From Planctomycetota bacterium (GTDB lineage Bacteria > Planctomycetota > Phycisphaerae > WQYP01), in assembly GCA_021851715.1 (NCBI GenBank), contig JAJZCR010000005.1:2329-66328 (forward strand): 64,000 bases of DNA. Direction: 5' to 3'. Made by a program: the position numbers and the translations under genes. The notes beneath the pieces are model-generated. The model was not told the origin of the DNA. It did no database searches and saw only the letters and a list, made by a program, of their open reading frames with translations. Positions 402 through 59,159 of this stretch are shown in pieces (the first letter of the stretch is position 1; every line of letters begins with the position of its first letter).

Positions 402-1352
402 TTAAATGTGCATCATCCGGGCGAGCATGGCGGCCACAGCCACCACCAGAGCCAGCCCTAAAAAAGCGGTAATGCGAAACAGCCGCAGTTTGGCCAGCGA
501 GCTTTCGACCGCGGTAATCAGCATAATGGCCCCGAGAACTTTCAGCAGCACCAGAGGAATCGCCAGGACGACAGCGGCGGGCGCTTTTCCGGCGGCCAGC
601 CCCCAGGGCGCGATGAGCACGTTGAGGAACACGCACAAGAGCACAAAAAATTTCATGCAGCCGCCCCATTTCACCAGGGCCGCGCCGGCCCCGGAAAATT
701 CCAGCGATTTGGATTCATCGATCATCGCCAGTTCAAAGTGACCGGAGGGATTGTCCACCGGTATTTTGCCGGTTTCCGCCAGGATCAGCATGAAAAATGC
801 GATCGCGATGAGCACGTGCGACGGATCAAAAAAATTGGCGAAGGGATGAATCCAGGTTTGCTGGACGATGTAGGGAATGGTCGAATTGGCCACGAAACAC
901 ACCGTGAAAAATACCACCATGAACACCGGCTCGGCCAGAAAGCCAACCATGCGGGTGCGGCTGGCACCCATGGCACCGTAGGGATTGGCGCTATCCACCG
1001 CGGCCAGGGCCGCAAAAAAACCGGCCAGGGCCAGTATAAATCCCGCACCCAGCATGTCTCCCATGAACGCAAAAAACAGCGGATAACTGGTGAGCACCGG
1101 AATCAGCAGCGTTACCACGATTGGGGCGGCGAACACCAGGTACGGCGTGAGCCGGAAAATCCACGTGCTTTGATCGGAGAGCACCTGATCTTTACAAAAG
1201 AGCTTCCAGATGTCGCGGTACACCTGAAAGATGCTTGAACCGTGCTTGGATTGCACCCGCTCCTTGAGACGGTTGAGCACGCCCACCGCCAGCGGCGATG
1301 CCAGCAGCACCACCAGCACCTGCAGAAGATTATATAAAATCATCCGTAGCAT
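402..1352 (-). CDS. NuoH/HycD/HyfC-family membrane subunit of a group-4 (formate hydrogenlyase / Ech-like) hydrogenase
   Basis: Polytopic membrane ORF. The N-terminus 'MLRMILYNLLQVLVVLLASPLAVGVLNRLKERVQSKHGSSIFQVYRDIWKLFCKD' and the internal 'ETGKIPVDNPSGHFELAMIDES' match the HycD/NuoH pattern. I moved the start to the ATG at 1350-1352 (track start 1406). Confidence 0.75.
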   Translation of the reverse strand: MLRMILYNLLQVLVVLLASPLAVGVLNRLKERVQSKHGSSIFQVYRDIWKLFCKDQVLSDQSTWIFRLTPYLVFAAPIVVTLLIPVLTSYPLFFAFMGDMLGAGFILALAGFFAALAAVDSANPYGAMGASRTRMVGFLAEPVFMVVFFTVCFVANSTIPYIVQQTWIHPFANFFDPSHVLIAIAFFMLILAETGKIPVDNPSGHFELAMIDESKSLEFSGAGAALVKWGGCMKFFVLLCVFLNVLIAPWGLAAGKAPAAVVLAIPLVLLKVLGAIMLITAVESSLAKLRLFRITAFLGLALVVAVAAMLARMMHI

Positions 1353-1617
1353 TGCCGCAGTTCTCCATGACAACAGACCCGTCCGCCAATTCAGTCCGGC
1401 GACCACGGCGTTGTGACGCGAATCAGGGATTTTTGGGGTGCAGCCAGATCAGGTGGAATCAGCCCCGACCCGCAACCGTCAATTCCCGGCCATCAATACC
1501 TCAACACAGATTGCTTTAAATCCGCATCGCACGCATCGACACTCGCCAGGAGTCATTAGCCCTGAGTTCTCAGGGCGGTTACGGGAGGACTCCATCTCCT
1601 TAACTTGTCCTTGAAAT

Positions 1618-2305: not shown

Positions 2306-5300
2306 ATGGCCCGCAATTCCAATCCAGCAACGACCGGGCAGATACCCGATGATTTGCGTGAATCGCTGCAAGGCGTGGCGAAGCGCCATCGCACGGTGCG
2401 TAGCAGCCTGGCGGCGTTGCGGGTGCTCTTCGTGAGTTTGGCGGTCGGCTTGGTTGCGGTTCTCCTGCTGGGGGAATTTACGCAAATGCCCTTGACGCTG
2501 CGCTGGGTGCTGGCCCTGCTGGTGTGGGTGGTGCCGGCGGGGTTATGTCTGCATGTGCTTATTCCAGCGCTGCGGCGGGTGAACATGCAGGTGGCTGCAG
2601 ATACCATGGATGCGATAAGGCCGCAGTCTCATGAGCTTTTTCTGAGTGCCGTAGAATTTGCTCAAAAACGACAGGACCCATTCGTGGGATCGCCGCAACT
2701 GGTCAACCACGTTATTAACCGGGCGGCCGATGATGCGCACGCTGTGGATCCTGGGCAAGCGGTTTCCGCGGATAAATTGATACGCTGGGCCTTTCTCTGT
2801 GCCCCGCTGGTGCTGATCTGGGCCATCCTTTGGCCACTGATGCCGCAAACATTAACCTTGGGCGTGCAAAGGACGGTGTTCCCCTGGATGGTGGCTACCG
2901 CACCGCCAATGACTGGGCCGCGGCATTCGATCAAGGTGGAACAAGGGCCGGCCATTACTTTCTTCGAGAAGCGGTATATTTTTCCAGCGTATACCGGGCT
3001 ACCGGAGAAAACTGTTCGTGGCCACAACGGAGCGATCCACGGGCTGTCCGGTTCACGTGTCCAGGTGATTATCCATACCACCGAGCCGTTGGCAGTAGGC
3101 AGCCGGCTGGTGGTAAACCCAAGTGGAGGTCAACCGGACACGCTGCCGCTGACGCGTTATGGTCCGCTGGCGTATGCGGCGAAGCTGATGTTGACGCACA
3201 ACGCCACTTATGCGGCAGTGCTGGTGAATCAACTTGGCGTCCAAATGGCCGGGAAGCAGGTGTGGCCGGTGACGGTAGATGCGGTTCCGCCGCCGACGAT
3301 CCATATTCTCACCCCCGCTTTAACCGTGCGGGTAAGGCCTGATGATTTGGTGCCGGTGCAATTCATCGCCACCGACATCTATGGACTTTCGGCCATCCGG
3401 GCTTTGCTCTGGACAGGTAATTCTGCCGTACGAACCGTGAATATCGCCCTGCCGGGCACGCCAGGCAAGGTGATTCAAAGCAATTGGACAATTTCGGTGC
3501 CACAGCAACTGCAAGCTGCCGGCCGGACCGATGCCCACACGATTTATTATAAACTTGAGGCCTTGGATTGCGCCCAGCCACAGGCCCATATTGCCATGAC
3601 CGCCCGGCATGAGCTAATCGTGGATACCCACTTGCAGCACAGCTATCAAACCCGGCAGGATAACAAATTATGGATGTCGTTGCGGCAAGCAATTTTGCAG
3701 GCGTTAATCGCGGTAAAAGCGGGCCGTGCCCAGGCCCGGGCTTTAGTCCGCTGGCCCGCATACATGGCGGTTGATCCGTTACGCAAGGCGGCGGTGGCCG
3801 GTGTGGCGGTGCGAGTGGTGCGGACGGGTCGAACGCTGGCAAACCAGGCCAAGACCATGTTGGAGACTGATTTTGGTGCGGTAGCAGCGCGTGCTATTGG
3901 CATTGCCCACGGTCCGATGCACGTGGCCGCCAATGATCTGGCGCGAACCGGGCTGGCGGCGGATCAAGCCGGGGGCACCCGCATGCCTCGATTGGCCCGG
4001 GCCAGCACGGTGGCACTCCAGCGGACACAAGCGTCACTGCGACGGCTGCTGCACGCCCTGGACCAAGCCAAGACTCGTGAGGCTTTGAAAAATTTACTAA
4101 CCCGGTTGGCCCGGCGACAGCGTTCCATCGCCCAGAGGCTATTGGACGGCAGTTCCCCTCACCATGCTTACCACGACCAGCAGGCCCTGGCCCAACAATT
4201 GCAGCAACTGCTGCGGCAACATCCCTCACTGCAGAATCCCGTCGCGCAGCAAATGACGGGACAAATCAACCAGTTAGCCAAAAAAATAGCTTCCATTGCC
4301 GCCCGGCAGGCGGCAGAGGATATGGATTTACATCCCAATCTTCTTCGACAAGCCCAGCAGACTGCGTTGGGGCATCTGGCCAACCAGCAGCAACTTTTGA
4401 ACCGACAAATAACACGTTTCAACCAACGCTATAAACCGGCGATTGCCACAGCGGCAGCGCAGCCGGTTACCGCAGCGATGATGCAAACCGTAAGTCACGC
4501 TCTGAACAGCCCCGGCGATGCCGCCGTGGCCCGGGAAGGGCGCAACAACATCGTGAAAACCCTGCGGTCTATGGCCAGGCAATTAGACCGGTATGCCAGT
4601 CAGGCGGATACGCCTGCGGCCAGGCAACAGTCCCGTCAAGTGGAGCATAATCAAGTAACCGCGGATCAACTTTCGCGACAGGTTCAGGCCGCCGCAGCCA
4701 CTCTACAACAAGGAGAATCAACAAACGCTCTGCATCGCGCTGTGCGGGCAGCGGATGCCATTGGGCGGCAGGTGCGTAACATGCTCAATGAAAACCCTGT
4801 GGACCAGGAGCGGGCTGATTTGCTGCAAGCCCGGGCCGATGCCAGGCATGCTGTAGAACAAACCATGCATGGATCCGGCAATGCCGCGGAGAGTTTATTA
4901 AAACAGGCTTATCACCAATTGGCGAAGGCCATACGGGAACAGGTAGCGCAGCTCGAATCGCAGCGGAGTTTGGCTCAGCAGGCAACCGCGGCAGCCATGC
5001 AGGCCCGAACCCTGGCTAGTCGGCAGGCCGCCCTGGCCACACAGACGGCCAAGGCCCATAAAACACCGACTCCGCAGGCGATCTCAAGCGCCCAGCACCA
5101 AACCGCCAATGCCATTGCAGAGGCCATTGCCCGGGAACGGAAATTACAACAGGAGGCCATGGCCGGTGCCCCGAATGTGGCCCAGCACCTGAAAGCAGCT
5201 CTGACCCAAATGCAGAGAGCCAACACGGCACAGGCTCAGGCAGCCGCGGACCAATCCGCCCATGATCAGGCAGGCTCGCAGGCCAATCAAGGCCGGGCCT

Positions 5301-5968
5301 TGGCCCAGATGCGTATGGCCGGCCGGGAAATTGCGGCGTTGGAGCATTTCGGGAGGATGAATACTTCCTCGCAACGCCCGGCCGGAGCGGATGGCAGCAA
5401 AGCCGGCAATTGGGCGGCCAGACCAACCGAGTCCTCTCAAGCAGGCCCACCAGGGGCGAACAGTTCATCCGCCGATGCCGGTCAAAGCCGTGCCAGCCAG
5501 GCATCTTTGGGCACCATGGCTGCGGTAGCCAGACACGTACAGGCTGCAGTGGCAAGCCAGCAACAGGCGCTCACCGGCAGTGCCGGAGCCGCAGCTTCAG
5601 CGGCGCAATCGCTGACGATGGCCTCGGCGACGTTGGCGGGTGCACTGGCCGGCCAGCCATCGGCCATGCCGAACAGCCATGGTGGAAATCCAGGAGCCGG
5701 CAGCGCCGAGCCCTCTGCCGGCCAACCGGGCAGTGAAGGAACGGGCATCTCCGGACCAATGCCGGACACTTGGGCCGTACCCCCGCAGGTAACAGCATTG
5801 GGCATCAGTCCGGCGGAATGGGAACACCTTGGACCGCTGCAACAACTGCGACTGCTGAATATTGCCAGGCAAAAGCTGCCGTCCGGCTATCGCCGAATTA
5901 TTCGCGATTATTATTTGCGCATCGCCGCCTTGCCTCCATCATCGCACCCTCATGGGAAAGAAAATTAA
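2306..5968 (+). CDS. Giant membrane-anchored Gln/Ala-rich protein (DUF4175-like architecture, unverified)
   Basis: 1220-aa ORF with a TATAAT at 2258-2263 upstream. N-terminal TM helices (LFVSLAVGLVAVLLL, WVLALLVWVVPAGLCLHVLI, WAFLCAPLVLIWAILW). A Q/A-rich low-complexity or coiled-coil core of about 600 aa, then a P/G/S-rich linker, then the tail 'LPSGYRRIIRDYYLRIA'. Confidence 0.6.
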   Translation: MARNSNPATTGQIPDDLRESLQGVAKRHRTVRSSLAALRVLFVSLAVGLVAVLLLGEFTQMPLTLRWVLALLVWVVPAGLCLHVLIPALRRVNMQVAADTMDAIRPQSHELFLSAVEFAQKRQDPFVGSPQLVNHVINRAADDAHAVDPGQAVSADKLIRWAFLCAPLVLIWAILWPLMPQTLTLGVQRTVFPWMVATAPPMTGPRHSIKVEQGPAITFFEKRYIFPAYTGLPEKTVRGHNGAIHGLSGSRVQVIIHTTEPLAVGSRLVVNPSGGQPDTLPLTRYGPLAYAAKLMLTHNATYAAVLVNQLGVQMAGKQVWPVTVDAVPPPTIHILTPALTVRVRPDDLVPVQFIATDIYGLSAIRALLWTGNSAVRTVNIALPGTPGKVIQSNWTISVPQQLQAAGRTDAHTIYYKLEALDCAQPQAHIAMTARHELIVDTHLQHSYQTRQDNKLWMSLRQAILQALIAVKAGRAQARALVRWPAYMAVDPLRKAAVAGVAVRVVRTGRTLANQAKTMLETDFGAVAARAIGIAHGPMHVAANDLARTGLAADQAGGTRMPRLARASTVALQRTQASLRRLLHALDQAKTREALKNLLTRLARRQRSIAQRLLDGSSPHHAYHDQQALAQQLQQLLRQHPSLQNPVAQQMTGQINQLAKKIASIAARQAAEDMDLHPNLLRQAQQTALGHLANQQQLLNRQITRFNQRYKPAIATAAAQPVTAAMMQTVSHALNSPGDAAVAREGRNNIVKTLRSMARQLDRYASQADTPAARQQSRQVEHNQVTADQLSRQVQAAAATLQQGESTNALHRAVRAADAIGRQVRNMLNENPVDQERADLLQARADARHAVEQTMHGSGNAAESLLKQAYHQLAKAIREQVAQLESQRSLAQQATAAAMQARTLASRQAALATQTAKAHKTPTPQAISSAQHQTANAIAEAIARERKLQQEAMAGAPNVAQHLKAALTQMQRANTAQAQAAADQSAHDQAGSQANQGRALAQMRMAGREIAALEHFGRMNTSSQRPAGADGSKAGNWAARPTESSQAGPPGANSSSADAGQSRASQASLGTMAAVARHVQAAVASQQQALTGSAGAAASAAQSLTMASATLAGALAGQPSAMPNSHGGNPGAGSAEPSAGQPGSEGTGISGPMPDTWAVPPQVTALGISPAEWEHLGPLQQLRLLNIARQKLPSGYRRIIRDYYLRIAALPPSSHPHGKEN

Positions 5969-47494: not shown

Positions 47495-47980
47495 TTACTT
47501 GCCACTCTTGGGACCAAACGTGTGGCGCAGGTAATTAATGACTTGCCAGCGCTGTTTGCGACTCAGCGAATCTTGAAAACTGGGCATGGGGCTTTTTCCG
47601 CGGGTAATCTTCCAAAAAATAGCCCCGTCCGTCTGTTTCCAGAATTTGGCGGTGGTCAGATTCGCCGGGTGCGGACTTAAAAACGCACCCGTCGGACCGT
47701 CGCCTTTGGCGTTGGCACCATGGCAGGCTACGCAATTCTGCGTAAAGATGGATTCGCCGGCGCTGATGGATTGGGCGTTTATCGGAATCGGGTTCTTATG
47801 TTTGGATGCGGAATGTGGAGCATTCCAATGTGAAAACATTCCCGGCTTTGGAAACATGGTGGATTTGGGCATGGCTCCCAGTGTCAGCATGGCTGCACAA
47901 GCCGCTGAGATCAGAGGTACCTTGGAAGACTTGAAAAACATAGGCGCAATCTCCATTAAAATCTTGACCTCACGGTCCAA
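47495..47980 (-). CDS. Class I c-type monohaem cytochrome
   Basis: Signal/anchor sequence, a single 'CVACHG' haem-binding motif and a distal Met in 'GKSPMPSF'. Confidence 0.75.
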   Translation of the reverse strand: MDREVKILMEIAPMFFKSSKVPLISAACAAMLTLGAMPKSTMFPKPGMFSHWNAPHSASKHKNPIPINAQSISAGESIFTQNCVACHGANAKGDGPTGAFLSPHPANLTTAKFWKQTDGAIFWKITRGKSPMPSFQDSLSRKQRWQVINYLRHTFGPKSGK

Positions 47981-48310: not shown

Positions 48311-49732
48311 TCACCGGCCAGGGACACGTAGTTCGCCGTGGACAGTTTTAACCGGAGGCCGCTCCATCGGCTCGGCAATGATGGCGTCGATATCCGCAAT
48401 CCGTTGATCCAGATCGGTTTGCAGAGCGACCATGGTCTGCTGGATTTGCAGCATGGTCTGGTCCAAACGAAGCTGCTGGCCGATGGAAGCCCGGCCTTGT
48501 TGGTAAGCCGCACGTGTCAGAGCTGCCATCATCCGCCGGCGAGGCAGAATATGGCAGCGAAAAAGTATTAATTGGCGGTGATCATTGCGCATAGCAATCA
48601 GATCGATGAGGAGTCGGGCGGCCAGAATGTTATATTGACCGCGCCAGGCGGCGCGGGTGGCGTGCAACTGGTCTCGTGCCTGCCGGATGGAGGCATTGAT
48701 GGCTTGATAGCGCAAAGCCGGAACTATCAGCGCCCCGGTGAAATTTTGTACGGTGCCATCCAGCGACGTCGACAGGCCGATGTCGAAATTGGGGATATAT
48801 TGCATTGCCGCACGGCGAATGCTGATACGGCCCGCCGCAGCCAGCTTACGCAGCCCCTGGAGCTTCGGATTCCGATTCACCGCCGTAGCCAATAGCTGAT
48901 TGTTGCTCACGGCAGGCACCGAGAGTTCGGCAATGGCTTGCGGAGGCTTCAGCGGCATATCGGCCGGTCGGCCCAAAAGGGCGTTAAGGGCAGCCAATTG
49001 CCGGGGCAATTGGTGGGTCAGCGCCACAATTCGGCTGCGCAGCAAATCAAGGCGATTTTGTCCGGAGAGCCATTGTTGCGGCCTGACGGTGCCGGTTTTT
49101 ATTCCGGCATGATTCAGGGCAATCGCACTTTGCAGCAGGGATTGCTGTCGCTTGGCCAGTTGCAGAATTACCGCAGTTCGCGCGTAGTCATACCAGGCAT
49201 CGAGCACGTTGCGGCGAAGTGCAAAGCGACGGGCCTGATAATTCCATTCGGCGGCCACAGCCCGCAACAGTGCGATCCTGGCATCGGCGGATATCTTGGA
49301 CGGCCATTGGATATCCGCACTGCCCATATTACCCGCTCCGACAGTGGTGTTGGACAAGGAAGCCGCCCCGCGGCTTAACAAGGTACCCGCATTAAGCATC
49401 AGGGTGGTGGTTTGAGTTCCGGCCTGCGGAATGTTTTCAATGGCAACGCGCCACTGCCAATAGGATTGCTGCACCTGCGGGCTATTGCGCAGCGCGTAAT
49501 GCACCAACTGGCGAGGTGTAGCGTTGAATGGCAAGGGCGGCGGATGGCGCTGGGCGAAAGGCTTGGCAAAGGCCTTCCCGGCGACTTGAGCTTGCCGGCG
49601 CAGTTTGCCTTCACCCGCCGGATGCACCGTACAGCCTGCCAGGCCAGTGAGGGCCGCCACCACCATGATCGACAGCCATGGACAGTATCCGTGCCAGTGA
49701 CGCATGACCTTGGGCCGGGGTGAAATCAACAT
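48311..49732 (-). CDS. Outer membrane efflux lipoprotein (TolC/CusC/CzcC family)
   Basis: Lipobox 'LTGLAGC' and two OEP repeats. An ATG overlaps the RND stop by one base (TGATG), so I start it at 49732 (alternative ATG at 49705). Confidence 0.8.
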   Translation of the reverse strand: MLISPRPKVMRHWHGYCPWLSIMVVAALTGLAGCTVHPAGEGKLRRQAQVAGKAFAKPFAQRHPPPLPFNATPRQLVHYALRNSPQVQQSYWQWRVAIENIPQAGTQTTTLMLNAGTLLSRGAASLSNTTVGAGNMGSADIQWPSKISADARIALLRAVAAEWNYQARRFALRRNVLDAWYDYARTAVILQLAKRQQSLLQSAIALNHAGIKTGTVRPQQWLSGQNRLDLLRSRIVALTHQLPRQLAALNALLGRPADMPLKPPQAIAELSVPAVSNNQLLATAVNRNPKLQGLRKLAAAGRISIRRAAMQYIPNFDIGLSTSLDGTVQNFTGALIVPALRYQAINASIRQARDQLHATRAAWRGQYNILAARLLIDLIAMRNDHRQLILFRCHILPRRRMMAALTRAAYQQGRASIGQQLRLDQTMLQIQQTMVALQTDLDQRIADIDAIIAEPMERPPVKTVHGELRVPGR

Positions 49733-52700
49733 CATATATGGGATCCTGTTTCGAAATTGGATTCTGGTGGAACCATGGTCGAAGCGCTGCATTGTTTTTG
49801 AAGCTGCCACCCCATCACGATGTAATACAAGGCCGGCAGCACCAGCAATTCCAGAATAAACGCGGTACCCAGGCCCCCTATCATGGGTGCCGCCAGGCGG
49901 CGCATTACCGAGCCACCCGCACCTGTGGCCCACAGCAACGGCGTCAAGCCGATGAGCGCGGCACAGGCGGTCATGGTCTGCGGGCGGATGCGCCGCACGG
50001 CCCCGGTATAAACGGCGTCAAAGAGATCCTGTTGGCTTTCAAGTCGGCCATCGTTCCGCGCCTGCTGCAAGCTCACATCCAGATACAGCACCAGCACCAT
50101 TCCCATTTCCACCGTTAATCCGCACAGGGCGATAATGCCCACCCAGACCGCCACCGACAGATGATAGTGCAGGAAATACAAGGTCCATGTCGCTCCCACC
50201 AGGCCGAAAGGAATGGATAAAAGCACGCCCAGCACGCGGCCCACGCTGCCGGTGGATACCAGCAGCAGAATGAAAATAATCAATAAAACCATGGGCACCA
50301 CCAGTTCAAGGCGGGCATTGGCCTCCTGAATCTGTTTGTACAAGCCGACCCACTGGTACGTGTAACCTGCAGGCAGCGTGATCCGGCGGCGGATGGCAAC
50401 GTTGGCCCGATTCACGTAACCGACGGTGTTGCCGGTGGTGGTGGTGATATTGACGTAATTGACCGTCATGGCGTTTTGGCTGTCGATCTCGGGTGGCCCG
50501 GCGGCATAACGGATCTGGGCGATCATACCCAGCGTGATCACACTGCCGTTGGGCGTGACGATGGGAAGGTCCTGAAGTTCCGTCGCGCTGCCGCGAAACT
50601 TGCGAAAATAGCGGATATTGATAGGCAGCCGCTGCAAACCCAGCACCATGGTGCTCACCGGATCGCCGCCGACGGCCATGGTGATGATGCGTTGAACGGC
50701 GGCCTGGGTCAGACCGTAGCGCATGGCCTGCAAGCGGTGAATATGGATATCCAGGTAATAACCTCCCAGTGTCTGGTTGGCGATCGCGCTGCCGGTACCA
50801 TCAACTCCTTGAAGCACGCGGGCGATTTCGTTGGACACCCGGCCAAGCACCTTGAGATTTTCGCCAAAGATGCGCATGCCCAGCAGGGTCTTGCTGCCGG
50901 TGTTGGCCATGTTGACGCGATTGGCGATGGGCATGGTCCAATAGGCGGCAAAGCCGGGAATTTTCAAAGCCTCGTTGAGACCCTCATGATGCTTGTTCCG
51001 GGCATCGGTCCATCTATGGAGAAGCTGCTGCAGAGAAAGCCGCGCATGCCCCGGCCAGAAAGTGCGCCGCAGCGGCCATGAAAGCCAGTGCGGCCAGTTG
51101 TCATAAAACCGCGCCACCGGAACCATGGGCCATTGGGTCCGGCGTTTAAGCCGGATGATGGTATCAATCATGTTCAGCGGCGCGGAATCGGTGGCGCTAT
51201 CCGCCCGGCCGATCTGCCCCCAGACGCTTTTCACCTCTGGAAAACTTTTGATAATTTTGTCGCTTTGCTCCAGCACGTAACCCGCCTCGCCGACACTTAT
51301 ACCAGGATACGTGGTTGGCATATATTCCAGATCGCCTTCATATAGCGGCGGCGTAAATTGCGTACCCAGGCGGCTCCATGGCCAGTAAATGGAAACGCAC
51401 AGCGCCGCAGCTACCAAAAGCAGCAGCCACCGCCAGACCATGGCCGCGTTAAAGACCGGACGAAATCCCCGCTGCAGCCACTGGCTTACCAGATTGTGCT
51501 GTTCGTGGATAATCTTCTGCGGCATCACCAGCATCACCGCCAGAACCACCCAGCCCAGCACCAGCCACCATTGGTAGCGTGCTAATTCGTCACTGTGACT
51601 GGCGGCGTTATACAAGCCGATCGCCGGCACGATGATGATCGCCAGCGCCGCGGCCCCCTGCATCCACCAGGGCCACTGCCCTGGGAACAACCGTGGTGTA
51701 ACAAAATAAATCATCAAAATGGGGACGACCGTGATGGAAAGCACCGCCGCGGCACCGATGGCAAACGTCTTGGTCAGAGCCAGCGGGCCAAACATTTTGC
51801 CGCTTTCGCCCGGTAAAATAAAGATCGGTAGAAAACTGATGGTGATAATCAGCAGGCTGAAAAACAATGCGGGACCCACTTCTCCGGCCGCCTCCAGCAT
51901 GATCATGGTCCGGGGACGCGGCGGGCGGCCTTTTGCCACCTGCTGCTCGTCACGGTTGATATGCTGGTGGGCGTTTTCAATCATCACGATGGAGCTGTCC
52001 ACCACCACGCCGATGGCGATGGCAATACCGCTGAGGCTCATGATATTGGCGCTCACGCCCAGCCAATAGAGGATCGCCAAGCTGATGATCATGCTGGCGG
52101 GAATTACGACAATGGCCACCAGGCCGCTGCGTCCGTGCCATAAAAACAGCAGGCACACGGCCGCCACCACAATCATTTCCTCCAGCAGCGTATCGGAAAG
52201 CGTATGAATGGAACGGTTAATGAGGTTGTCGCGGTCGTAACCGGTCTTGAAAAATACGCCAGGAGGCAGACTCGTGGACATGGCGGCGATTTTCTTTTTG
52301 ACCCGTTGCACCACCCGATACGTGTCTGCGCCGGAACGCACCACCACAATGCCGCCGACGACCTGCCCGCGACCGTTCCAATCCAATATTCCCTGGCGCT
52401 GCCCGCCGGCAATCTGCACCGTGGCCACGTCATGCAACGGAATCGGCGTGCCATCAGGGGCTTGCCCCACGGGTACGTTTTCCAGTTGCTTGATATTCCG
52501 CAAATATCCCCGGCTGCGGACCAGATACTGCAATTCGCTTATGTCCACGGTTGCGCCGCCCACATCGTTATTGGACTTCTGAATTGCGCCGGCCACCTGC
52601 CCCACACCCAGGTGGTACGCCCGGAGCCGGTTCGGATTCACCACCACCTGATATTCCTCGGAAAAGCCACCGATCCCCGCCACTTCCGCCACTCCCCGTA

Positions 52701-53373
52701 CCGCGTCCAACTGATAACGCACAAACCAATCCTGCAGGGACCGCAACTGCCCCAGGTTGATGTTGCTGGCAACCAGCGGCTTACCCGACAGAGGCGATTT
52801 TCCGGGGCGGTCAAACGCCCGCACCAGCACCAGGCGGGAGCGGTGCGAAAGCGGCGCAGAATCCCGGTGGGGGTACCATCGATTGGTCTGCGGATCATGC
52901 CAGATTCCTCCGGGGTAACTGCCGCAATACCAGCCGGGATATAACACGTATTGATACGCCCACCCCGCCCCGGTGGCGTCCGGGCCAAGTTCCGGGGTTA
53001 CCCCTTTGGGTAGCAACGCTTTGGCTGAGTCCAGATACTCCAGCACCACATTGCGGGCCCGATACAAATTGGTGCCGTTCTTAAAAACCACCGTCACCAG
53101 GGAATAATCGAACATGCTTTGGCCGCGCACGGCCGTGACATTGGGCACGTGAATAAGCTGGGTTTCCAACGGATACGTCACCTGTTTGTCCACCACTCCC
53201 GGCGTCTGGCCGGGGTAATTCGTAAGCACCAGCACCTGTATGTCGGACAGATCGGGCACAGCGTCAAGCTTGCTGTGAAAAGCGGCCCAACCGGTCGCCG
53301 CCATCACCATCAGAGCCACCAGCAGCACCGGAAGGCGGTTGTGGATCGAGAATTCTATGATCTTGCGTATCAT
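49732..53373 (-). CDS. Heavy-metal-efflux (CusA/CzcA-type) RND permease, unusually long (1213 aa)
   Basis: 'MIRKIIEFSIHNRLPVLLVALMV', 'VPDLSDIQVLVLTNYPGQ', 12-TM topology and the typical 'GIAIGVVVDSSIVMIEN'. Confidence 0.9.
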   Translation of the reverse strand: MIRKIIEFSIHNRLPVLLVALMVMAATGWAAFHSKLDAVPDLSDIQVLVLTNYPGQTPGVVDKQVTYPLETQLIHVPNVTAVRGQSMFDYSLVTVVFKNGTNLYRARNVVLEYLDSAKALLPKGVTPELGPDATGAGWAYQYVLYPGWYCGSYPGGIWHDPQTNRWYPHRDSAPLSHRSRLVLVRAFDRPGKSPLSGKPLVASNINLGQLRSLQDWFVRYQLDAVRGVAEVAGIGGFSEEYQVVVNPNRLRAYHLGVGQVAGAIQKSNNDVGGATVDISELQYLVRSRGYLRNIKQLENVPVGQAPDGTPIPLHDVATVQIAGGQRQGILDWNGRGQVVGGIVVVRSGADTYRVVQRVKKKIAAMSTSLPPGVFFKTGYDRDNLINRSIHTLSDTLLEEMIVVAAVCLLFLWHGRSGLVAIVVIPASMIISLAILYWLGVSANIMSLSGIAIAIGVVVDSSIVMIENAHQHINRDEQQVAKGRPPRPRTMIMLEAAGEVGPALFFSLLIITISFLPIFILPGESGKMFGPLALTKTFAIGAAAVLSITVVPILMIYFVTPRLFPGQWPWWMQGAAALAIIIVPAIGLYNAASHSDELARYQWWLVLGWVVLAVMLVMPQKIIHEQHNLVSQWLQRGFRPVFNAAMVWRWLLLLVAAALCVSIYWPWSRLGTQFTPPLYEGDLEYMPTTYPGISVGEAGYVLEQSDKIIKSFPEVKSVWGQIGRADSATDSAPLNMIDTIIRLKRRTQWPMVPVARFYDNWPHWLSWPLRRTFWPGHARLSLQQLLHRWTDARNKHHEGLNEALKIPGFAAYWTMPIANRVNMANTGSKTLLGMRIFGENLKVLGRVSNEIARVLQGVDGTGSAIANQTLGGYYLDIHIHRLQAMRYGLTQAAVQRIITMAVGGDPVSTMVLGLQRLPINIRYFRKFRGSATELQDLPIVTPNGSVITLGMIAQIRYAAGPPEIDSQNAMTVNYVNITTTTGNTVGYVNRANVAIRRRITLPAGYTYQWVGLYKQIQEANARLELVVPMVLLIIFILLLVSTGSVGRVLGVLLSIPFGLVGATWTLYFLHYHLSVAVWVGIIALCGLTVEMGMVLVLYLDVSLQQARNDGRLESQQDLFDAVYTGAVRRIRPQTMTACAALIGLTPLLWATGAGGSVMRRLAAPMIGGLGTAFILELLVLPALYYIVMGWQLQKQCSASTMVPPESNFETGSHI

Positions 53374-54710
53374 GGCATGGCCTTTCGCTTCGGTGACATC
53401 CGGGGAATAAAGCGGGCCTTGATCTCATTGAGTTGCGATTCCACATCCATCAGGAACTGGCCGCTGGTAACCACTTTTTGGCCCCGTTTCAGACCGGAGA
53501 GAACCTGTACCAGGCTGTGCTCACCGCTCAAACCTGTCTTAACCGCGACCGGATTAAAATGACCGGGCTGCACTTCCACAAACGCCAACTCGCCGGTGCC
53601 GGTGTTCATTACCGCCACACGCGGAACCAGGAGGCATCGAAGAACCGGCTTGGTATGGATATCCGCCAGAGCATACATACCGGGACGCAATTGGCCGGCG
53701 CGATTATTCAAAATCATGCGGACCGTGGTGTTATGGAACTGCGGGTTCTCATACGGATCAATGAAGCTGATCTTTCCCGTAAAGGTTTGTCCGGGCAGCG
53801 CCGCCAAGGTGGCCGTCACACGCTGGCCCCGGCGAATCCACGGCAATTGATTGTCAAACACCCGCACATTGAGCCACAAAGTGCCAAGGCTTTCGATCCG
53901 CATGGCGGTCGTGCCGGTTTTGATGAAGGATTTCTGCCGGACCCGCACCGCCGTGAGTGTGCCGGCAGCCGGGCTGTAAAAGGTGATGTAGGTTTGGGCA
54001 TGAAGCGTTTTCTCAATGTTTTTGATTTGCACGCCATTGACGCCCAGAAATTTCATCCGCTGTTCCATGGATCGCACCAGTTCTGCCGTGTCGCGGGTGG
54101 CTCCGGCATCGCGGGATTTTCGCAAGGCGAGCACCGCCTTCCGCGCCGCAATAAGTTCTTCCTCCGCAGTCACGATAGCCGGGCTGTACAGCGTGAATAG
54201 CGGTTGACCACTGGTGACGGCGGTACCGTTGGTGGTGGCGTAAAGCCTGCCAATCCAGCCATCGGTGCGCAAATTGATACTGAAGCGTTCCGGGGCGGCG
54301 GCCTGCAGATAGCCGACCGCCCGGATGGTTTTCCGCAGCGCACCCTCCGTCACCTGCGCGGTTTGAATGCCCATATCCTGAACTATGGCTGGATCCACAT
54401 GGACCTGCCCCGCCGGGGCGAGCTTCCGTGTGGAAGCGTATACGGGAATTAATTTCATACCCATGGAACTTATGCCGGGCTTGTTGGAGATAGACGATGG
54501 TCCCACCATCGGATCCCACCAATACAGGATCCGGCGTTTGGAACCATGGGCCGCCTGCGTCGATGGCTCTCCACCGGCAACCCTTGCGGTACCGTTTTTT
54601 AAGCCCATCCATCGGCCGATCGGGCGATGATTCCACGCCCCAATGGCAATCCCGATGAGTCCGCCCATGGCTATTGCTAAAATGACCAGCAGTGTTTTGA
54701 GAACCTTCAT
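53370..54710 (-). CDS. RND efflux periplasmic adaptor (CusB/CzcB-like membrane fusion protein)
   Basis: Signal anchor 'MKVLKTLLVILAIAMGG', then a lipoyl/beta-barrel pattern ('GQPLFTLYSPA', 'FVEV..G.F..V.VKTG'). ATG at 54708-54710 after AGAGGA. 4-nt overlap with the RND gene. Confidence 0.85.
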   Translation of the reverse strand: MKVLKTLLVILAIAMGGLIGIAIGAWNHRPIGRWMGLKNGTARVAGGEPSTQAAHGSKRRILYWWDPMVGPSSISNKPGISSMGMKLIPVYASTRKLAPAGQVHVDPAIVQDMGIQTAQVTEGALRKTIRAVGYLQAAAPERFSINLRTDGWIGRLYATTNGTAVTSGQPLFTLYSPAIVTAEEELIAARKAVLALRKSRDAGATRDTAELVRSMEQRMKFLGVNGVQIKNIEKTLHAQTYITFYSPAAGTLTAVRVRQKSFIKTGTTAMRIESLGTLWLNVRVFDNQLPWIRRGQRVTATLAALPGQTFTGKISFIDPYENPQFHNTTVRMILNNRAGQLRPGMYALADIHTKPVLRCLLVPRVAVMNTGTGELAFVEVQPGHFNPVAVKTGLSGEHSLVQVLSGLKRGQKVVTSGQFLMDVESQLNEIKARFIPRMSPKRKAMP

Positions 54711-55307
54711 GGCATCCTCTGTTGAAGGGTGACAAATGCTCGGCACCAGAAGCGGTGCCGCTGTACGCCGATACATAACATATTTATACAGATATGATTA
54801 TATAATAAGTACGCACTTGCTGTGCAGAGGAGAAAGTGTAAAATCCGCGCCACCAGGCTGGGGCCTGTGGTATTGGGAAACTGAATGCAGGAGGAAAACG
54901 CTTGTCACCGATGGCCGGACGAATTTCAGAGGAACCGGAAATGGCACCATGCTGGTGGGCGCGGCGGCAGTGGCCATTGGAAGTGCATGCACCACGATGC
55001 AGACCGGAGGTTGCCGATTTTCACCGCCGGTGCCCGAGCACGCACGGTGCATCCCGCCGGACCTGGCCGTCATCATCATGGAATTCATCATTCCGCAGCG
55101 GCAACAGGCGCTCACTTCGCGGCCACGCGCAGCCCGGCACACCCCCGTGGTCACCACGGTCGGAAACGCCACGCCCACGATCAACGCCGGTACCATCAGC
55201 CGGCGGATCGACCAAAATAATTTCCTGAGGATGGTCATATTGGCTCGCAAAACTTGTGCATCAACGGTCCGTGCCTGTTTTTTTAGCGGTCCGGCCTGCG
55301 GGGGCTC

Positions 55308-55700
55308 TCAACGATGCAATTGATCCTGCAGTTTCACGGCCATCCACATGCCGCCCATTTTCCACCATATCTTCATCGGAAAAATCGTATCATCCGCCGG
55401 ATCCATCTTGCCCTTCACTTGGATGGTTTTCCCCACATACGCGGCCAACGGACCCGGATTGGTCAAAAGCGTCCACGCCTTGCCTTTAATCAGAATGCCG
55501 GCCGGCATGCCACTGGCCAAACACTTTTTGCCGCAGGTTTTGCCATGCGCTCGGCCTTTCATTTGCATGGTGCTGTAACAGGCCATATCCAACAATTCAC
55601 CCTTGACGGTTACTTTTTTTAGCATGGTCGCATGGGCCGCCATACCCGCCCCTGCTACCAGCATAACGACCGTCACGATCGAAAAAGTCATTTTGTGCAT
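55308..55700 (-). CDS. Small secreted Met/Cys/His-rich protein (candidate periplasmic metal-binding protein)
   Basis: AGGAG 8 nt upstream of the ATG at 55700. Signal peptide 'MHKMTFSIVTVVMLVAGAGMAAHA'. Mature part is about 105 aa and includes 'DMACYSTMQMKGRAHGKTCGKKC' and 'WWKMGGMWM'. Confidence 0.6.
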   Translation of the reverse strand: MHKMTFSIVTVVMLVAGAGMAAHATMLKKVTVKGELLDMACYSTMQMKGRAHGKTCGKKCLASGMPAGILIKGKAWTLLTNPGPLAAYVGKTIQVKGKMDPADDTIFPMKIWWKMGGMWMAVKLQDQLHR

Positions 55701-55774
55701 GCGTCCAGCTCCTAACGAAAAACATCCTTATTCTGCTCGTCGCCGGCACCATGTCCGCGACTCCATAGCTTACA

Positions 55775-55800
55775 ACGAGACCCAAGGCCTAAAAAGTTCA
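55775..55800 (-). promoter_or_regulatory. ECF-type promoter candidate P2 (TGAAC-N18-CGT) upstream of the small periplasmic protein gene
   Basis: The minus strand reads TGAACTTTTTAGGCCTTGGGTCTCGTTGT, 75 nt upstream of the ATG at 55700. It is near-identical in layout to P1 at 57651-57676. Confidence 0.45.
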
Positions 55801-56097
55801 AAACCCTTGATTTTTAATTTTCCATGTTTGTCCTGAGGCGTCGCACTCAGTCGCCAATCTCCCTGTTACCCTGCACAGCAACCTGAAACATCCAATGAAT
55901 AAACGAGTTAGGGTCGCATCCAGCCAAATCACCGGTAACCAGGATTTCGGCACGGCGATCGGCCGGATGCCGGTATGGACATGACCGCGGCAGGGCTGTT
56001 ACGAACATCGCCAAAACTCATGTATTGCGACAAGTGATGCATGGCGGGAAAACCCGGAGGCGGGTGGCTCCCGCGACGCAGTAGCCGTGGATGAATT

Positions 56098-56694
56098 TCA
56101 TGCTGTCGGCTCTTGAAGATGCCGGCCGCTTTCTGCCAATCGATCGGCCAGCAACAATCTTCGCAAAATCGCCCGGCCACGGCTCAGTCGCGAGCGAATG
56201 GTTCCCACCGGAACATCCAAAATCTCCGCCGCCACCGCATAGTCATAACCACCGATATCGACGAGTAAAATAGCCCAGCGCATGTCTTCGGGCAGTCCCC
56301 GGATGGCCTGTATCAGTTGCGCGTCGGACACACATTCCATTAATTCATCGGGATGGTCAATCTCATCGGGTGCCGGCACCGCAGGCGAGGCCGCCCGCGC
56401 GGCGGGTTCCGCAGCCAAAGCCTCCAAACTGATAACCGGTCCTTCGCCCGCGTGCTTCCGCCACCGGTCCGTCCAGGTATGACGCAAAATGGTCAATAGC
56501 CACGCCTGAATGCCATTCTGGTCCTGAAGCGTGCGCAGCGCGCGGCTGGCCTTAAACAGCGTCTCCTGGGCAAGATCCTCGGCTTCGGCGAGATTTTGGG
56601 ATAACAGCGTGGCGCTGCGCAGCACCATGGCTCGGTGGGGCCACACAAGGCGATAGAAATCAACACAGGTATCTTGCGATTCCGGAACGGCCAT
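56098..56694 (-). CDS. ECF (group IV) sigma-70 family RNA polymerase sigma factor
   Basis: Region 2 'AEDLAQETLFKASRAL..W.AWLLTILRHTWTDRWR' and region 4 'GYDYAVAAEILDVPVGTIRSRLSRGR'. Confidence 0.88.
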   Translation of the reverse strand: MAVPESQDTCVDFYRLVWPHRAMVLRSATLLSQNLAEAEDLAQETLFKASRALRTLQDQNGIQAWLLTILRHTWTDRWRKHAGEGPVISLEALAAEPAARAASPAVPAPDEIDHPDELMECVSDAQLIQAIRGLPEDMRWAILLVDIGGYDYAVAAEILDVPVGTIRSRLSRGRAILRRLLLADRLAESGRHLQEPTA

Positions 56695-56919
56695 TCCCCT
56701 TCACTTTGGGTTCACCTTCCATGTTGATTTTATACCCGACTGCCGCGGCAAACCAATCTGCCCAGATCGCCGGATTGGGCCCAAATAGCTGAGGGTGCCG
56801 ATGTTTGTTAAATTAAAGTGTGTCTTTAGCGTGATGGGAGGAAAGAACCTATACGCCCTTTTCCCATTCGAATCATCCGGCGTTGGCGGCGTTGTCCATG
56901 GCAGGTCCAACCAGGCAAT

Positions 56920-57573
56920 TCAGTCCCGCAAGTGTGACGCCATCGCCAGCAATGCCGCGGGCGAACTTCGCCCCATCAGACACATCCAATGCCCGTGGCG
57001 TTTGGCCTCAACCAGGTTGAGGTCATGGGTCCGCACCACCTGATATTGAACCCCCTGGAAATGCACCCTCTGTCCTCTGGGACCGGCAATATGGTTGCCC
57101 GTGAGCACCACCACCGGGTGGGATCCCGACGAAAGCATCGCACATGAAACCTGCTGATGTCGAATTTCAGTCATGTAACACGAATTCATCCTGGCCATGT
57201 GGCAGGTTTTAAGCCCCGGCAGGCATATACAGGCCTGGGCTATCGCCGCAGCCGCCTTCGACTCCGTAAACCGGCCAGCACTGACAGGCGAACGGGCCAT
57301 GGCAGACCGGTACGCGTGCGTTAAATCGGCCAGCGAGGCCCGGGTCGGGACGGCCGAGAGGATGGAAAACAACACCAACCCCATGGCCAAAAACGCTGCG
57401 GCTCCGGCCACCAGGCCCACACCAAATTGGCGTAAATTCCTCCGCGGCAACACAATGGCCTGCCTCAGCCGTTGATCCAACGCCCCCGTATCCACCGGAA
57501 TCGTGGCCAGCCGTCGCAGGCGACGCGTCAGTACCGCGTCAAAGGCATTATCCTTGGGATCAGGCGTAGGCAT
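56920..57573 (-). CDS. Single-pass membrane protein with Cys/His/Met-rich extracytoplasmic domain (candidate anti-sigma factor / sensor)
   Basis: GGAG upstream of the ATG at 57573. A cytoplasmic segment of about 50 aa, then TM 'VGLVAGAAAFLAMGLVLFSILSAV', then an outer domain with 'ACICLPGLKTCHMARMNSCYM' and 'HGHWMCLM'. The function is inferred from context only. Confidence 0.45.
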   Translation of the reverse strand: MPTPDPKDNAFDAVLTRRLRRLATIPVDTGALDQRLRQAIVLPRRNLRQFGVGLVAGAAAFLAMGLVLFSILSAVPTRASLADLTHAYRSAMARSPVSAGRFTESKAAAAIAQACICLPGLKTCHMARMNSCYMTEIRHQQVSCAMLSSGSHPVVVLTGNHIAGPRGQRVHFQGVQYQVVRTHDLNLVEAKRHGHWMCLMGRSSPAALLAMASHLRD

Positions 57574-57650
57574 GGGCCACTCCGTGTGTTGCGAGCCGTC
57601 AAATCAGGCGTACAAACTGGCTATCTGCACACCCGCCCACGTGAAGATAA

Positions 57651-57676
57651 ACGCAAATGGCGGCCAAAAAAGTTCA
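57651..57676 (-). promoter_or_regulatory. ECF-type promoter candidate P1 (TGAAC-N18-CGT) upstream of the anti-sigma-like gene / ECF sigma gene
   Basis: The minus strand reads TGAACTTTTTTGGCCGCCATTTGCGTTTA, 78 nt upstream of the ATG at 57573. Confidence 0.45.
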
Positions 57677-57813: not shown

Positions 57814-58827
57814 TTAGGGTTTCCGCCGCTTGCGCGGCAGCAGTGTCAGGCCGGCCATTGCCACACCGAAAAGTGCCAGCGTGCTGGCTTCGGGCGTTTC
57901 TACTGCCGTACCGGCAGTAGTTAAATTCCAGCCCACCACGTCCAACGCGATAAGCTCATTACGTCCAAGAACGGGATTAACCCCGGGGGAACCAAATGCA
58001 TCCTGAACTTGCGGCGGACTATTCCCTTGGGCCTGCGCCGGCGTAACGCCATTCCCCCAGTCCGCGTAATCCGAGCTTCCACCGTATTGATTGAAGTGCA
58101 CCAAATCGGTGCTGCCACCATCGATCGAAAAGTACGGAGCAATATTGGTACTGGTGCTGTAGCTTCGGACGCCGCTGGCCGTGTACCGGAACAAGTCCAA
58201 TGGGCCCACCGCCCCGGTTGTGAGGTTCCCACTGCCCAACTCCGATCCAGTCCCACCGATGGCAAGCACCTCATCGATTTCGTGTGCGGCAACAGACTGC
58301 GCCGAATAACCACTGGGATTTGAGCTATTGGCCATCAGCCCCAAGTTCAAAGAGATAGTGCTGTCGGGTGCTCCGGGTGGCGGATTCGCGATGTATCCAA
58401 GCGCCCTTAAAAGCGGCAAGGTGGTGGTTATATTTCCGCTGGTGTTGCCCGGCACCGGATCATTCGGACCGGGTGGCAACGAAGCGATCGCGGTATTATC
58501 GTAGGAGGACCGCGTTTGGTTGTTTTCTAGATTAGATAGGTATTGAGAGTATGTTATCGTACTGACGTACGTGCTGCTCTGACCAAGCCCGGAATTCATA
58601 CCCGCAAAAGTGATATTCACCGTCACCGGATTGGCTATATAACTCTCCACCGTGGAGATCGCCTGGTTAACCTGAGATTCGTAATATGCGGTATTGGATC
58701 CGCCGTAGGTGCCAAAGCTGGAAGCAAACGTCGCATTGATGGTCAGCGCCGGTGCAACCGCAGCTGACCCCAGCAGCATCAGCGCCCCAGGCAACACCGC
58801 AGCCGACCAACTGCGAGCACTCAGCAT
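57814..58827 (-). CDS. PEP-CTERM-anchored secreted protein with metalloprotease-like 'HEIDEVL' motif (exosortase substrate)
   Basis: Signal peptide 'MLSARSWSAAVLPGALMLLGSAAVAPA', with the start moved to the ATG at 58827. The C-terminus 'TPEASTLALFGVAMAGLTLLPRKRRKP' has the PEP-like motif, a TM helix and a basic tail. Central motifs are 'AAHEIDEVLAIGG' and 'LDLFRY'. Confidence 0.75.
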   Translation of the reverse strand: MLSARSWSAAVLPGALMLLGSAAVAPALTINATFASSFGTYGGSNTAYYESQVNQAISTVESYIANPVTVNITFAGMNSGLGQSSTYVSTITYSQYLSNLENNQTRSSYDNTAIASLPPGPNDPVPGNTSGNITTTLPLLRALGYIANPPPGAPDSTISLNLGLMANSSNPSGYSAQSVAAHEIDEVLAIGGTGSELGSGNLTTGAVGPLDLFRYTASGVRSYSTSTNIAPYFSIDGGSTDLVHFNQYGGSSDYADWGNGVTPAQAQGNSPPQVQDAFGSPGVNPVLGRNELIALDVVGWNLTTAGTAVETPEASTLALFGVAMAGLTLLPRKRRKP

Positions 58828-59159
58828 CCGCCCAGTAGAATTTACCACGCCTGGGCAACCTGCCACACTTTCCGTGCGAACATTTTCACCAGCCATAACC
58901 ATCTCCTCATTTTCTGGTGCATCTTGCTCCTTCGAAGCCATAACCACGCTTCGAAAGAAAGGGCCAAGAGCCTTTACGGGAATCAGTTTAGCCAGCACCC
59001 AGACCAAAGGCAAGAAAAAAAATGTCATTTTTCGTCAATAAAAATTTAGATATTATTTCAATTGAAGAGTGGCAATTCGCCGGAGTCAATTATTCGGTAT
59101 ATTGCCTGCTACCTCACCGGCATCAAACCGCCCTACCAGCAAATGCCCATAGCCCGCTT

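Follow-up and report, generated by a model that had tools for sequence, protein, structure and literature searches.

A cluster on the minus strand of contig JAJZCR010000005.1, from a Planctomycetota bacterium of the Phycisphaerae (assembly GCA_021851715.1), combines genes for an extracytoplasmic function (ECF) sigma factor and a candidate membrane-bound regulator with those for a heavy-metal efflux (HME) pump of the resistance-nodulation-cell division (RND) type. It was first described in an earlier reading of the same DNA (the original prediction), a stretch of 64,000 nucleotides referred to here as the window. Open reading frame (ORF) listing and Pfam and NCBIfam scans recovered all of the genes previously listed, on the minus strand, at the same coordinates, and in the predicted order: a 217-aa single-pass membrane protein that is a candidate anti-sigma factor and periplasmic sensor (56920–57573; hydrophobic span at approximately residues 50–73); an ECF (group 4) sigma factor of 198 aa (56098–56694); a 130-aa secreted protein with a signal peptide and a predicted OB-like beta-barrel (55308–55700); a CusB-like periplasmic adaptor (53370–54776; longest ORF, 468 aa); a CusA-type heavy-metal RND permease of 1213 aa (49732–53373); and an outer-membrane factor (OMF) lipoprotein of 474 aa, counted from an ATG at 49735 (48311–49735). 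The 217-aa gene and the sigma gene are separated by 225 nt. The overlapping stops and starts proposed for the efflux genes are real ATGA overlaps, joining the adaptor to the RND gene (53370–53373) and the RND gene to the OMF gene (49732–49735). Some 530 nt ahead of the adaptor, earlier set aside as ambiguous, actually hold a conserved gene of 146 codons (54798–55238), whose product is small and rich in Cys and Met. As predicted, no zf-HC2 or RskA protein was found among the cluster genes in the Pfam and NCBIfam scans. A scan of ten further large ORFs of the window turned up no two-component or MerR gene.

The RND permease, adaptor, and OMF can be assigned on sequence grounds to the CusA, CusB, and TolC/NodT/CusC types, respectively. 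The permease scores 963 bits against TIGR00914 (cutoff, 701) and 890 bits against Escherichia coli CusA, versus 370 bits against ZneA; a CzcA-type specificity for divalent cations was rejected because the score to CusA is so far above that to ZneA. The residues aligned with M573, M623, and M672 of CusA, the Met triad of the periplasmic cleft in CusA structures, are all methionine. The adaptor contains an HlyD_D23 domain (PF16576, E = 5e-58) and a weak match to HMBD, and among NCBIfam models it matches CusB best; in an alignment to E. coli CusB (4e-37), the methionines of an N-terminal DPM...MxM pattern, the three-Met Cu(I)/Ag(I) site of CusB, are in register. Comparison with a related locus (L001) indicates that its true start is probably the ATG at approximately 54710 (MKVLKTLL). 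The OMF, which lies within an ORF at 48311–49933, matches OEP (PF02321) at 6e-19 over two stretches and has a lipobox (LTGLAGC) following the start at 49735; its orthologs in L001, L012, and L018 are 458–474 aa long. The CusA triad and the CusB methionines are Cu(I)/Ag(I) ligands in CusCBA, so the predicted substrates are monovalent copper and silver, and not nickel, cobalt, zinc, or cadmium. Of the earlier assignment to CusA/CzcA-type efflux, the tripartite HME-RND pump therefore stands, and the type is narrowed to Cus (Cu/Ag) and away from Cnr or Czc. The permease is approximately 160 residues longer than E. coli CusA, with three insertions (at approximately residues 146–205, 565–619, and 750–794); this length is kept across related loci (1213–1219 aa).

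The sigma factor consists of regions sigma2 and sigma4 only (Sigma70_r2, PF04542, at 6e-13; Sigma70_r4_2, PF08281, at 2e-14), which places it in ECF group 4; it scores 58 bits against TIGR02937 (cutoff, 42.9), and it reaches no equivalog model. The closest sigma factor of solved structure is Mycobacterium tuberculosis SigH (87.9 bits, 7e-24); RpoE scores 58 bits, and CnrH (4cxf_A) only 23.7 bits (E = 3.4e-4). By this comparison with PDB entries, the protein is not CnrH-like (ECF291). Its only two Cys residues stand apart from each other, and the C-terminus is not extended; a CorE-like mode, in which the sigma factor itself would sense metal, was rejected because the protein has neither a CxC motif nor a Cys-rich domain.

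Related loci (numbered with the prefix L) were sampled from eight distinct architectures or lineages, a count that reflects our own grouping of the loci. The 217-aa family adjoins an ECF sigma gene in all eight, in either gene order. Across these lineages the partner proteins share only 23–32% identity, and the accompanying sigma factors are orthologous, with 37–44% identity to the window sigma and conserved motifs in regions 2 and 4. In the window, L001, L002, L020, and L022, the genes for the partner and sigma are accompanied by the 130-aa gene, the 146-aa gene, and cusBAC; L006, L012, and L024 have the same set plus extra small genes. Partner, sigma, and cusBAC alone are found in L016 and L026; L018 also has a toxin-antitoxin insertion between partner and sigma, and L028 a Cu-type P-ATPase (YHS/HMBD) ahead of the partner. 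L030 has the order sigma, partner, cusBAC. The remaining two architectures consist of sigma followed by partner, with a 36-nt gap and no metal genes nearby in L014, and with a 4-nt gap in L027, where the pair belongs to a copper island that also contains Csp, DUF305, MerR-HMA, and DsbD. Thus cusBAC stands beside the 217-aa family in six of the eight lineages. Because the layout recurs in independent lineages whose partner proteins are only 23–32% identical, it is, on this comparison, not a chance arrangement, and among the sampled lineages the 217-aa family appears as the only conserved partner of the sigma factor.

A PhdYeFM/PIN toxin-antitoxin pair forms the insertion between the candidate anti-sigma gene and the sigma gene at L018:10880–11502 (plus strand). 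A lipoprotein with a weak match to Peptidase_M48 is encoded on the opposite strand between the sigma and pump genes at L006:8442–9170, L012:11890–12492, and L018:13311–13901 (all minus strand), and its gene is absent from the window; this lipoprotein could be a protease acting on the candidate anti-sigma protein, or could be unrelated.

A common element was seen in the intergenic DNA upstream of both the 217-aa gene and the 130-aa gene. Its form across loci is (T/G)GAACTTTT-N13/14-CGTT. In the window it supplies two candidate ECF-type promoters on the minus strand, each approximately 75 nt upstream of its gene: P1 (TGAACTTTTTTGGCCGCCATTTGCGTT, 57650–57676), ahead of the 217-aa gene, and P2 (TGAACTTTTTAGGCCTTGGGTCTCGTT, 55774–55800), ahead of the 130-aa gene at the head of the efflux-side operon. 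A search of the 64 kb with the pattern TGAACTTTTT-N13-CGTT, allowing one mismatch, returned two matches (0.02 expected), at 57676–57650 and 55800–55774, which are the two predicted positions. When the upstream regions of orthologs are aligned, the element is kept and the flanks have diverged.

A relaxed form of the pattern was used to scan the relatives, with the exception of L030. It was found upstream of the partner gene in L001, L002, L006, L012, L016, L018, L020, L022, L024, L026, and L028, and ahead of the sigma gene in the two loci in which sigma comes first, L014 and L027. A second copy, equivalent to P2, precedes the 130-aa gene in L001, L002, L020, and L022; elsewhere it precedes the first gene on the efflux side, which is a 116-aa gene in L006 and L012 and cusB in L016, L018, L026, and L028. 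This is the placement expected for an autoregulated ECF sigma factor that has the pump operon as its target, and we infer that the element is used by this sigma. An 87-aa gene called in L016 contains the motif and is probably no gene. In sister-lineage loci, a strictly conserved DSKGHYHPDW sequence also occurs, once or twice per gene, in small genes for secreted proteins or lipoproteins (L006:9436–9786 and L012:12886–13236, plus strand; L006:7609–7947, L012:11063–11302, and a gene around 7954 in L024, minus strand). One of these genes stands behind a copy of the ECF promoter motif. Their products may add to the metal-binding part of the regulon, and no gene of this kind occurs in the window.

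The 217-aa protein has no Pfam or NCBIfam match at E ≤ 0.1, including to zf-HC2, RskA, and similar anti-sigma domains, and a recognizable class I anti-sigma domain (typically approximately 80–90 residues) was found in none of 32 sampled members of its family; its cytoplasmic part has only about 50 residues. A word-indexed search with the protein returned seven close clusters only; 13 more, at 23–32% identity, were reached by a profile into which a protein of 31% identity, encoded at a related locus, had been taken. With HMMER, a search of 1.84 billion representatives brought the family to 413 clusters (at 50% identity) at E ≤ 1e-3, 188 of them at E ≤ 1e-30; nearly all matches are full-length, at approximately 210–240 aa. 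Ten representatives were checked, and all are unnamed or annotated as "hypothetical protein." The matches in GTDB are metagenome-assembled genomes (MAGs) of Planctomycetota and Phycisphaerae, and a narrow alignment of the family found seven Planctomycetota MAG loci; the genome of the window itself is absent from the GTDB representatives. Conservation in the cytoplasmic part centers on R18, L22, and P26-V-D-T29, within the motif RL..LA.(M/I/L)PVDT..LD..L. The outer domain is rich in Cys, His, and Met, as originally described; of the motifs quoted there, only C132 (invariant), M134, C144, W196, and C198 are conserved throughout the family.

An AlphaFold2 (AF2) model of the 217-aa protein (mean per-residue confidence [pLDDT], 71.5; above 85 for residues 128–215) has cytoplasmic helices at residues 8–22 and 30–39, a transmembrane helix at 52–72, and a periplasmic part made up of two helices followed by seven strands and a C-terminal helix. 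Three signals, independent of one another and each weak, suggest that this periplasmic domain probably uses the known RseB/MucB_C-like fold: the best Foldseek matches of the model are to the C-terminal domain of RseB/MucB (E = 1e-3 to 7e-3, approximately 90 aligned columns, root-mean-square deviation of about 5 Å); the Pfam model MucB_RseB_C (PF17188) is weakly matched by three of the 32 family members (E ≥ 5.7e-4), the window protein not among them; and in a comparison with E. coli RseB by hhalign, only the last 39 columns, covering the last strand and the helix, align (E = 0.007). At a sub-threshold level, one family member also matches DUF3379, and five match NCBIfam CU044_5270. The suggestion that the sensing parts form a new family is thus upheld in that the 217-aa family is uncurated, and is qualified by this probable, weakly supported, kinship in fold.

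The 130-aa protein has seventeen homologous clusters, and C41, H52, C56, and C60 are invariant throughout, including in members encoded away from pumps; a Met/Trp-rich C-terminal hairpin, IWW(K/R)MGxMWM (IWWKMGGMWM in the window), occurs only in the pump-linked subfamily. There is no Pfam or NCBIfam match, and a profile search of all PDB sequences gave chance-level matches only, with no CnrX at E ≤ 10. AF2 predicts an OB-like barrel with a helical insert (core pLDDT above 90), for which Foldseek against the PDB returned generic OB folds only, all at E > 0.04; CusF was matched neither in the profile search nor among the top 50 Foldseek matches. With a predicted beta-barrel, the protein is not of the CnrX type, an all-helical four-helix bundle. 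Its absence from several lineages with the circuit makes the role of an accessory or chaperone likelier than that of an obligate sensor of the CnrX kind. The earlier view of it as a periplasmic metal-binding candidate accordingly keeps its secretion signal and its invariant Cys and His residues, and loses the sensor role as the likelier one. The profiles of the small proteins find no PDB chain at E ≤ 10; since structures of CnrY, CnrX, and CusF have been deposited there, none of the three is matched. This, together with the lack of any Pfam or NCBIfam model, agrees with the prediction that the sensor parts do not resemble CnrY or CnrX.

The comparison of relatives indicates that the frame at 54798–55238 is a real coding gene. 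It is open at 146–147 codons in the window, L001, L002, L020, and L022, with single-codon indels only, and in the closer pairs changes at the third codon position exceed those at the first and second (0.09/0.05/0.16 for L002 versus L020); a related 147-aa frame occupies the same place in the more distant L006 and L012. In L007/L008, the gene called between the 138-aa gene and cusB was read in the wrong frame (21% identity); L006:10483–10926 is the frame that is conserved. The product has an N-terminal hydrophobic segment, a conserved Met-rich C...CC...M...C core, and a hydrophobic C-terminus ending in VL(L/I)I (sequence elements ..TTGVCRAARG..CCRCGMMNSMMM..KCVLII), and it has no Pfam or NCBIfam match.

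From the observed gene content, conserved linkage, conserved promoter motif, and Cus-type ligand residues, we consider it reasonably probable that the locus is a two-operon ECF sigma circuit controlling a tripartite efflux pump of the Cus (Cu(I)/Ag(I)) type. At rest, the 217-aa type II membrane protein would hold the sigma factor through its cytoplasmic N-terminus, a two-helix segment of approximately 50 residues; in size and shape this candidate resembles class II anti-sigma domains such as that of CnrY. The periplasmic domain would detect a signal, for which a thiophilic metal, for example Cu(I) or Ag(I), is the likeliest candidate, and the sigma factor would be freed through a conformational change or regulated proteolysis. 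Free sigma could then transcribe from P1 the genes for its partner and itself, giving positive autoregulation, and from P2 the 130-aa and 146-aa genes and cusB-cusA-OMF. The two small proteins would be lineage-specific accessories; the 130-aa protein sits where CusF would and plausibly passes metal to the adaptor. The conserved pairing, the two-site motif, the lack of zf-HC2 and RskA proteins, and the non-Cnr parts all support the inference of the original prediction that this is a metal-responsive ECF circuit analogous to cnrYXH-CBA.

Several points weigh against this proposal. The binding of sigma by the 217-aa protein, the nature of the signal, and the release of sigma are inferred, and the metal specificity is read only from residues shared with the E. 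coli Cus proteins. The N-terminal region of the 217-aa protein is modeled at a pLDDT of only 50–60, and its family profiles, compared with all PDB chains at E ≤ 10, gave chance-level matches only and no anti-sigma chain. Most family members carry CCM, and the window protein has C132-Y133-M134, the second Cys being replaced by Tyr; the window lineage has also gained C115, C117, C124, and H125 just upstream of C132 (residues 115–134), and the two changes together suggest a metal or disulfide site remodeled relative to that of other family members. Instead of binding metal, the conserved Cys residues might form structural disulfides or act as a redox sensor. In L014/L015 the pair has no obvious metal genes nearby. 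Finally, a sigma70-like pair of hexamers (TGCACA-18-TATAAT, 10 of 12 positions) lies at 54797–54826 (minus strand), at the 3′ end of the 146-codon gene and just upstream of cusB, and possibly allows basal constitutive expression; matches in the sigma70-like scan overall occur at chance frequency. This last element, the 225-nt gap between the 217-aa and sigma genes in the window, and the lack of sequence similarity to any known anti-sigma domain would fit a 217-aa protein that is no anti-sigma factor but a co-transcribed membrane accessory in metal handling, with sigma controlled in some other way and the pump largely constitutive or controlled elsewhere. We think this very improbable: the two genes are strictly adjacent in both orders, with gaps of only 4 and 36 nt in the canonical sigma-then-partner order, the single-pass N-in topology together with the conserved cytoplasmic motif is an anti-sigma architecture, and the sigma factor has no other conserved partner.

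The pair might instead be a sigma/anti-sigma system for envelope stress or thiol-redox stress, in which damage would be reported either by the periplasmic Cys residues (disulfide or redox damage) or by the RseB-like domain (envelope damage), and the pump would be one of several outputs. The weak resemblance to RseB/MucB_C, the position of SigH, SigE, and RpoE (redox and envelope-stress factors) as the nearest sigma factors among solved structures, the pair without metal genes in L014/L015, and the thioredoxin and DsbD genes near the pair in L027 are all in keeping with such a role; yet a strong link to genes of Cu/Ag-type efflux and to other copper genes recurs in six to seven of the eight lineages, and the only motif-bearing targets beside the pair are pump operons and small secreted proteins rich in Cys, Met, and His, so that we regard a general stress system as unlikely. 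Sensing could also be divided between two proteins, as in CnrX/CnrY, with the 130-aa or 146-aa protein detecting the metal and binding the periplasmic domain of a 217-aa anti-sigma protein that does not itself bind metal. The RseB C-terminal domain is a protein-binding module (RseA-RseB), and a weak resemblance to it in the 217-aa protein would suit this arrangement, as would the invariant C41/H52/C56/C60, Met/Trp-rich C-terminus, and confidently predicted fold of the 130-aa protein and the location of its gene between the sigma and pump genes. Against it, L016/L026, L018, and L028 keep the partner, sigma, motif, and cusBAC without a homolog of either small protein, as L030 does for sigma, partner, and cusBAC. 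Moreover, the 130-aa and 146-aa genes are behind P2, and the 130-aa gene is therefore an output of the circuit; distant homologs of the 130-aa protein occur away from any sigma or pump. A separate sensor thus seems to us improbable, and the one-protein circuit described above is the reading that we retain.

The flanks of the cluster and the rest of the window contain other genes of potential interest. A 161-aa c-type cytochrome (47495–47980, minus strand), with a sub-threshold best NCBIfam match to cytochrome 579, is encoded 330 nt downstream of the OMF gene. Relatives whose loci reach past the OMF gene do not show it behind the pump, and it therefore probably does not belong to the cluster. 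Directly upstream of P1 is a metalloprotease of the NF038122 family with a PEP-CTERM sorting signal (57814–59028, minus strand); a 359-aa gene without a Pfam match is at the same position in L002. A fluoride riboswitch (Rfam RF01734; 49.8 bits, gathering score 34) is found at 1540–1608 (minus strand), upstream of a 334-aa ORF (402–1406, minus strand). A 1220-aa ORF at 2306–5968 (plus strand) has no Pfam match at E ≤ 1e-3; kinship with a 1215-aa ORF in L014, also without a Pfam match, was considered and rejected, the two being unrelated to each other.

Among known systems, the closest in layout is cnrYXH-cnrCBAT of Cupriavidus metallidurans, with its sigma factor CnrH (ECF291), class II anti-sigma factor CnrY, and sensor CnrX. 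Both loci place genes for an ECF sigma factor and a single-pass anti-sigma protein (here a candidate) upstream of a heavy-metal RND operon, and in each a pair of sigma-type promoters (candidates here) serves the regulatory genes and the pump separately; in C. metallidurans these are the CnrH-dependent cnrYp and cnrCp (PMC6851896). Class II anti-sigma domains such as that of CnrY are short and made of two helices (PMC6851896), and a cytoplasmic domain of similar size (approximately 45–50 residues, two helices) is predicted here, at low pLDDT. In contrast to the Cnr system, the window sigma is unlike CnrH (23.7 bits), and no similarity to CnrY or CnrX is detectable; the 217-aa candidate has its own periplasmic domain of approximately 140 residues, whereas the Cnr anti-sigma factor docks to a separate sensor; and the pump is of the Cus type for Cu/Ag, not for Ni/Co, in a lineage of Planctomycetota. 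The circuit would work like cnrYXH-CBA but, in sequence terms, lies outside that family.

The efflux side resembles the cusCFBA operon of E. coli, controlled by CusRS, in the CusA Met triad, the three-Met site of CusB, the OMF lipoprotein, translational coupling, and the presence of a gene for a small periplasmic beta-barrel protein (predicted here). The window differs in gene order (small proteins, B, A, OMF), in its longer RND permease, and in its candidate regulator, an ECF sigma factor with a membrane partner and not CusRS; its small protein is no CusF homolog by sequence search or Foldseek. The RpoE-RseA-RseB and AlgU-MucA-MucB systems share with it an ECF sigma factor with a single-pass anti-sigma protein (here a candidate), a −35 element of the GGAACTT type, and the fold to which the 217-aa periplasmic domain is best, if weakly, matched (E of approximately 1e-3, below the Pfam threshold). 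Unlike those systems, the RseB_C-like module would here be fused to the anti-sigma protein itself, RseA_N, RseA_C, and the N-terminal lipid-binding domain of RseB are missing from the 217-aa protein, and the neighboring genes serve metal efflux and not quality control of envelope proteins.

ECF sigma factors have been tied to copper homeostasis before, in CorE (ECF44) and in CarQ/CarR of Myxococcus xanthus (PMC6851896, PMC10141476). CorE has no anti-sigma factor and senses metal via a CxC motif between sigma2 and sigma4 and a C-terminal Cys-rich domain (PMC6851896), both of which are absent from the window sigma; CarR, unlike the 217-aa protein, is a multi-pass membrane protein, and it controls carotenogenesis. 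Resistance to copper, zinc, and cadmium is usually under one- or two-component systems, and the metal-excess ECF systems that have been reviewed are CnrH, CarQ, CorE, and CorE2 (PMC6851896, PMC10141476). A literature search found no paper joining Planctomycetes, an ECF sigma factor, copper, and RND. A listing of this sigma group, with its partner unannotated, may already exist in the ECF Hub; novelty is uncertain chiefly on that account.

A more far-reaching interpretation can be offered tentatively, at a confidence somewhat below even. The 217-aa family as a whole may represent a class of regulator not described before, in which a single protein acts both as periplasmic Cu(I)/Ag(I) sensor and as anti-sigma factor. 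It would be built from a Cys/Met-bearing RseB_C-like domain and a class-II-like two-helix tail for sigma binding, with its own ECF group and its own promoter, GGAACTTTT-N13/14-CGTT; this combination would then be the chief regulator of Cus-type efflux among Phycisphaerae and further Planctomycetota, and the first ECF/anti-sigma pathway dedicated to copper/silver RND efflux, with the 130-aa protein as a non-homologous replacement for CusF.

The predicted promoter motif and the conserved Cys and Met positions make the circuit directly testable, and since the candidate sigma factor, its partner, and the promoters lie together in one compact locus, it could be tried as an orthogonal metal-responsive switch. 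If true, the proposed circuit would give ECF control of heavy-metal RND pumps a second architecture, here with a pump of the Cus type; it would provide a regulator in a phylum with almost no characterized regulators, and an uncurated family that numbers several hundred clusters would gain a function.

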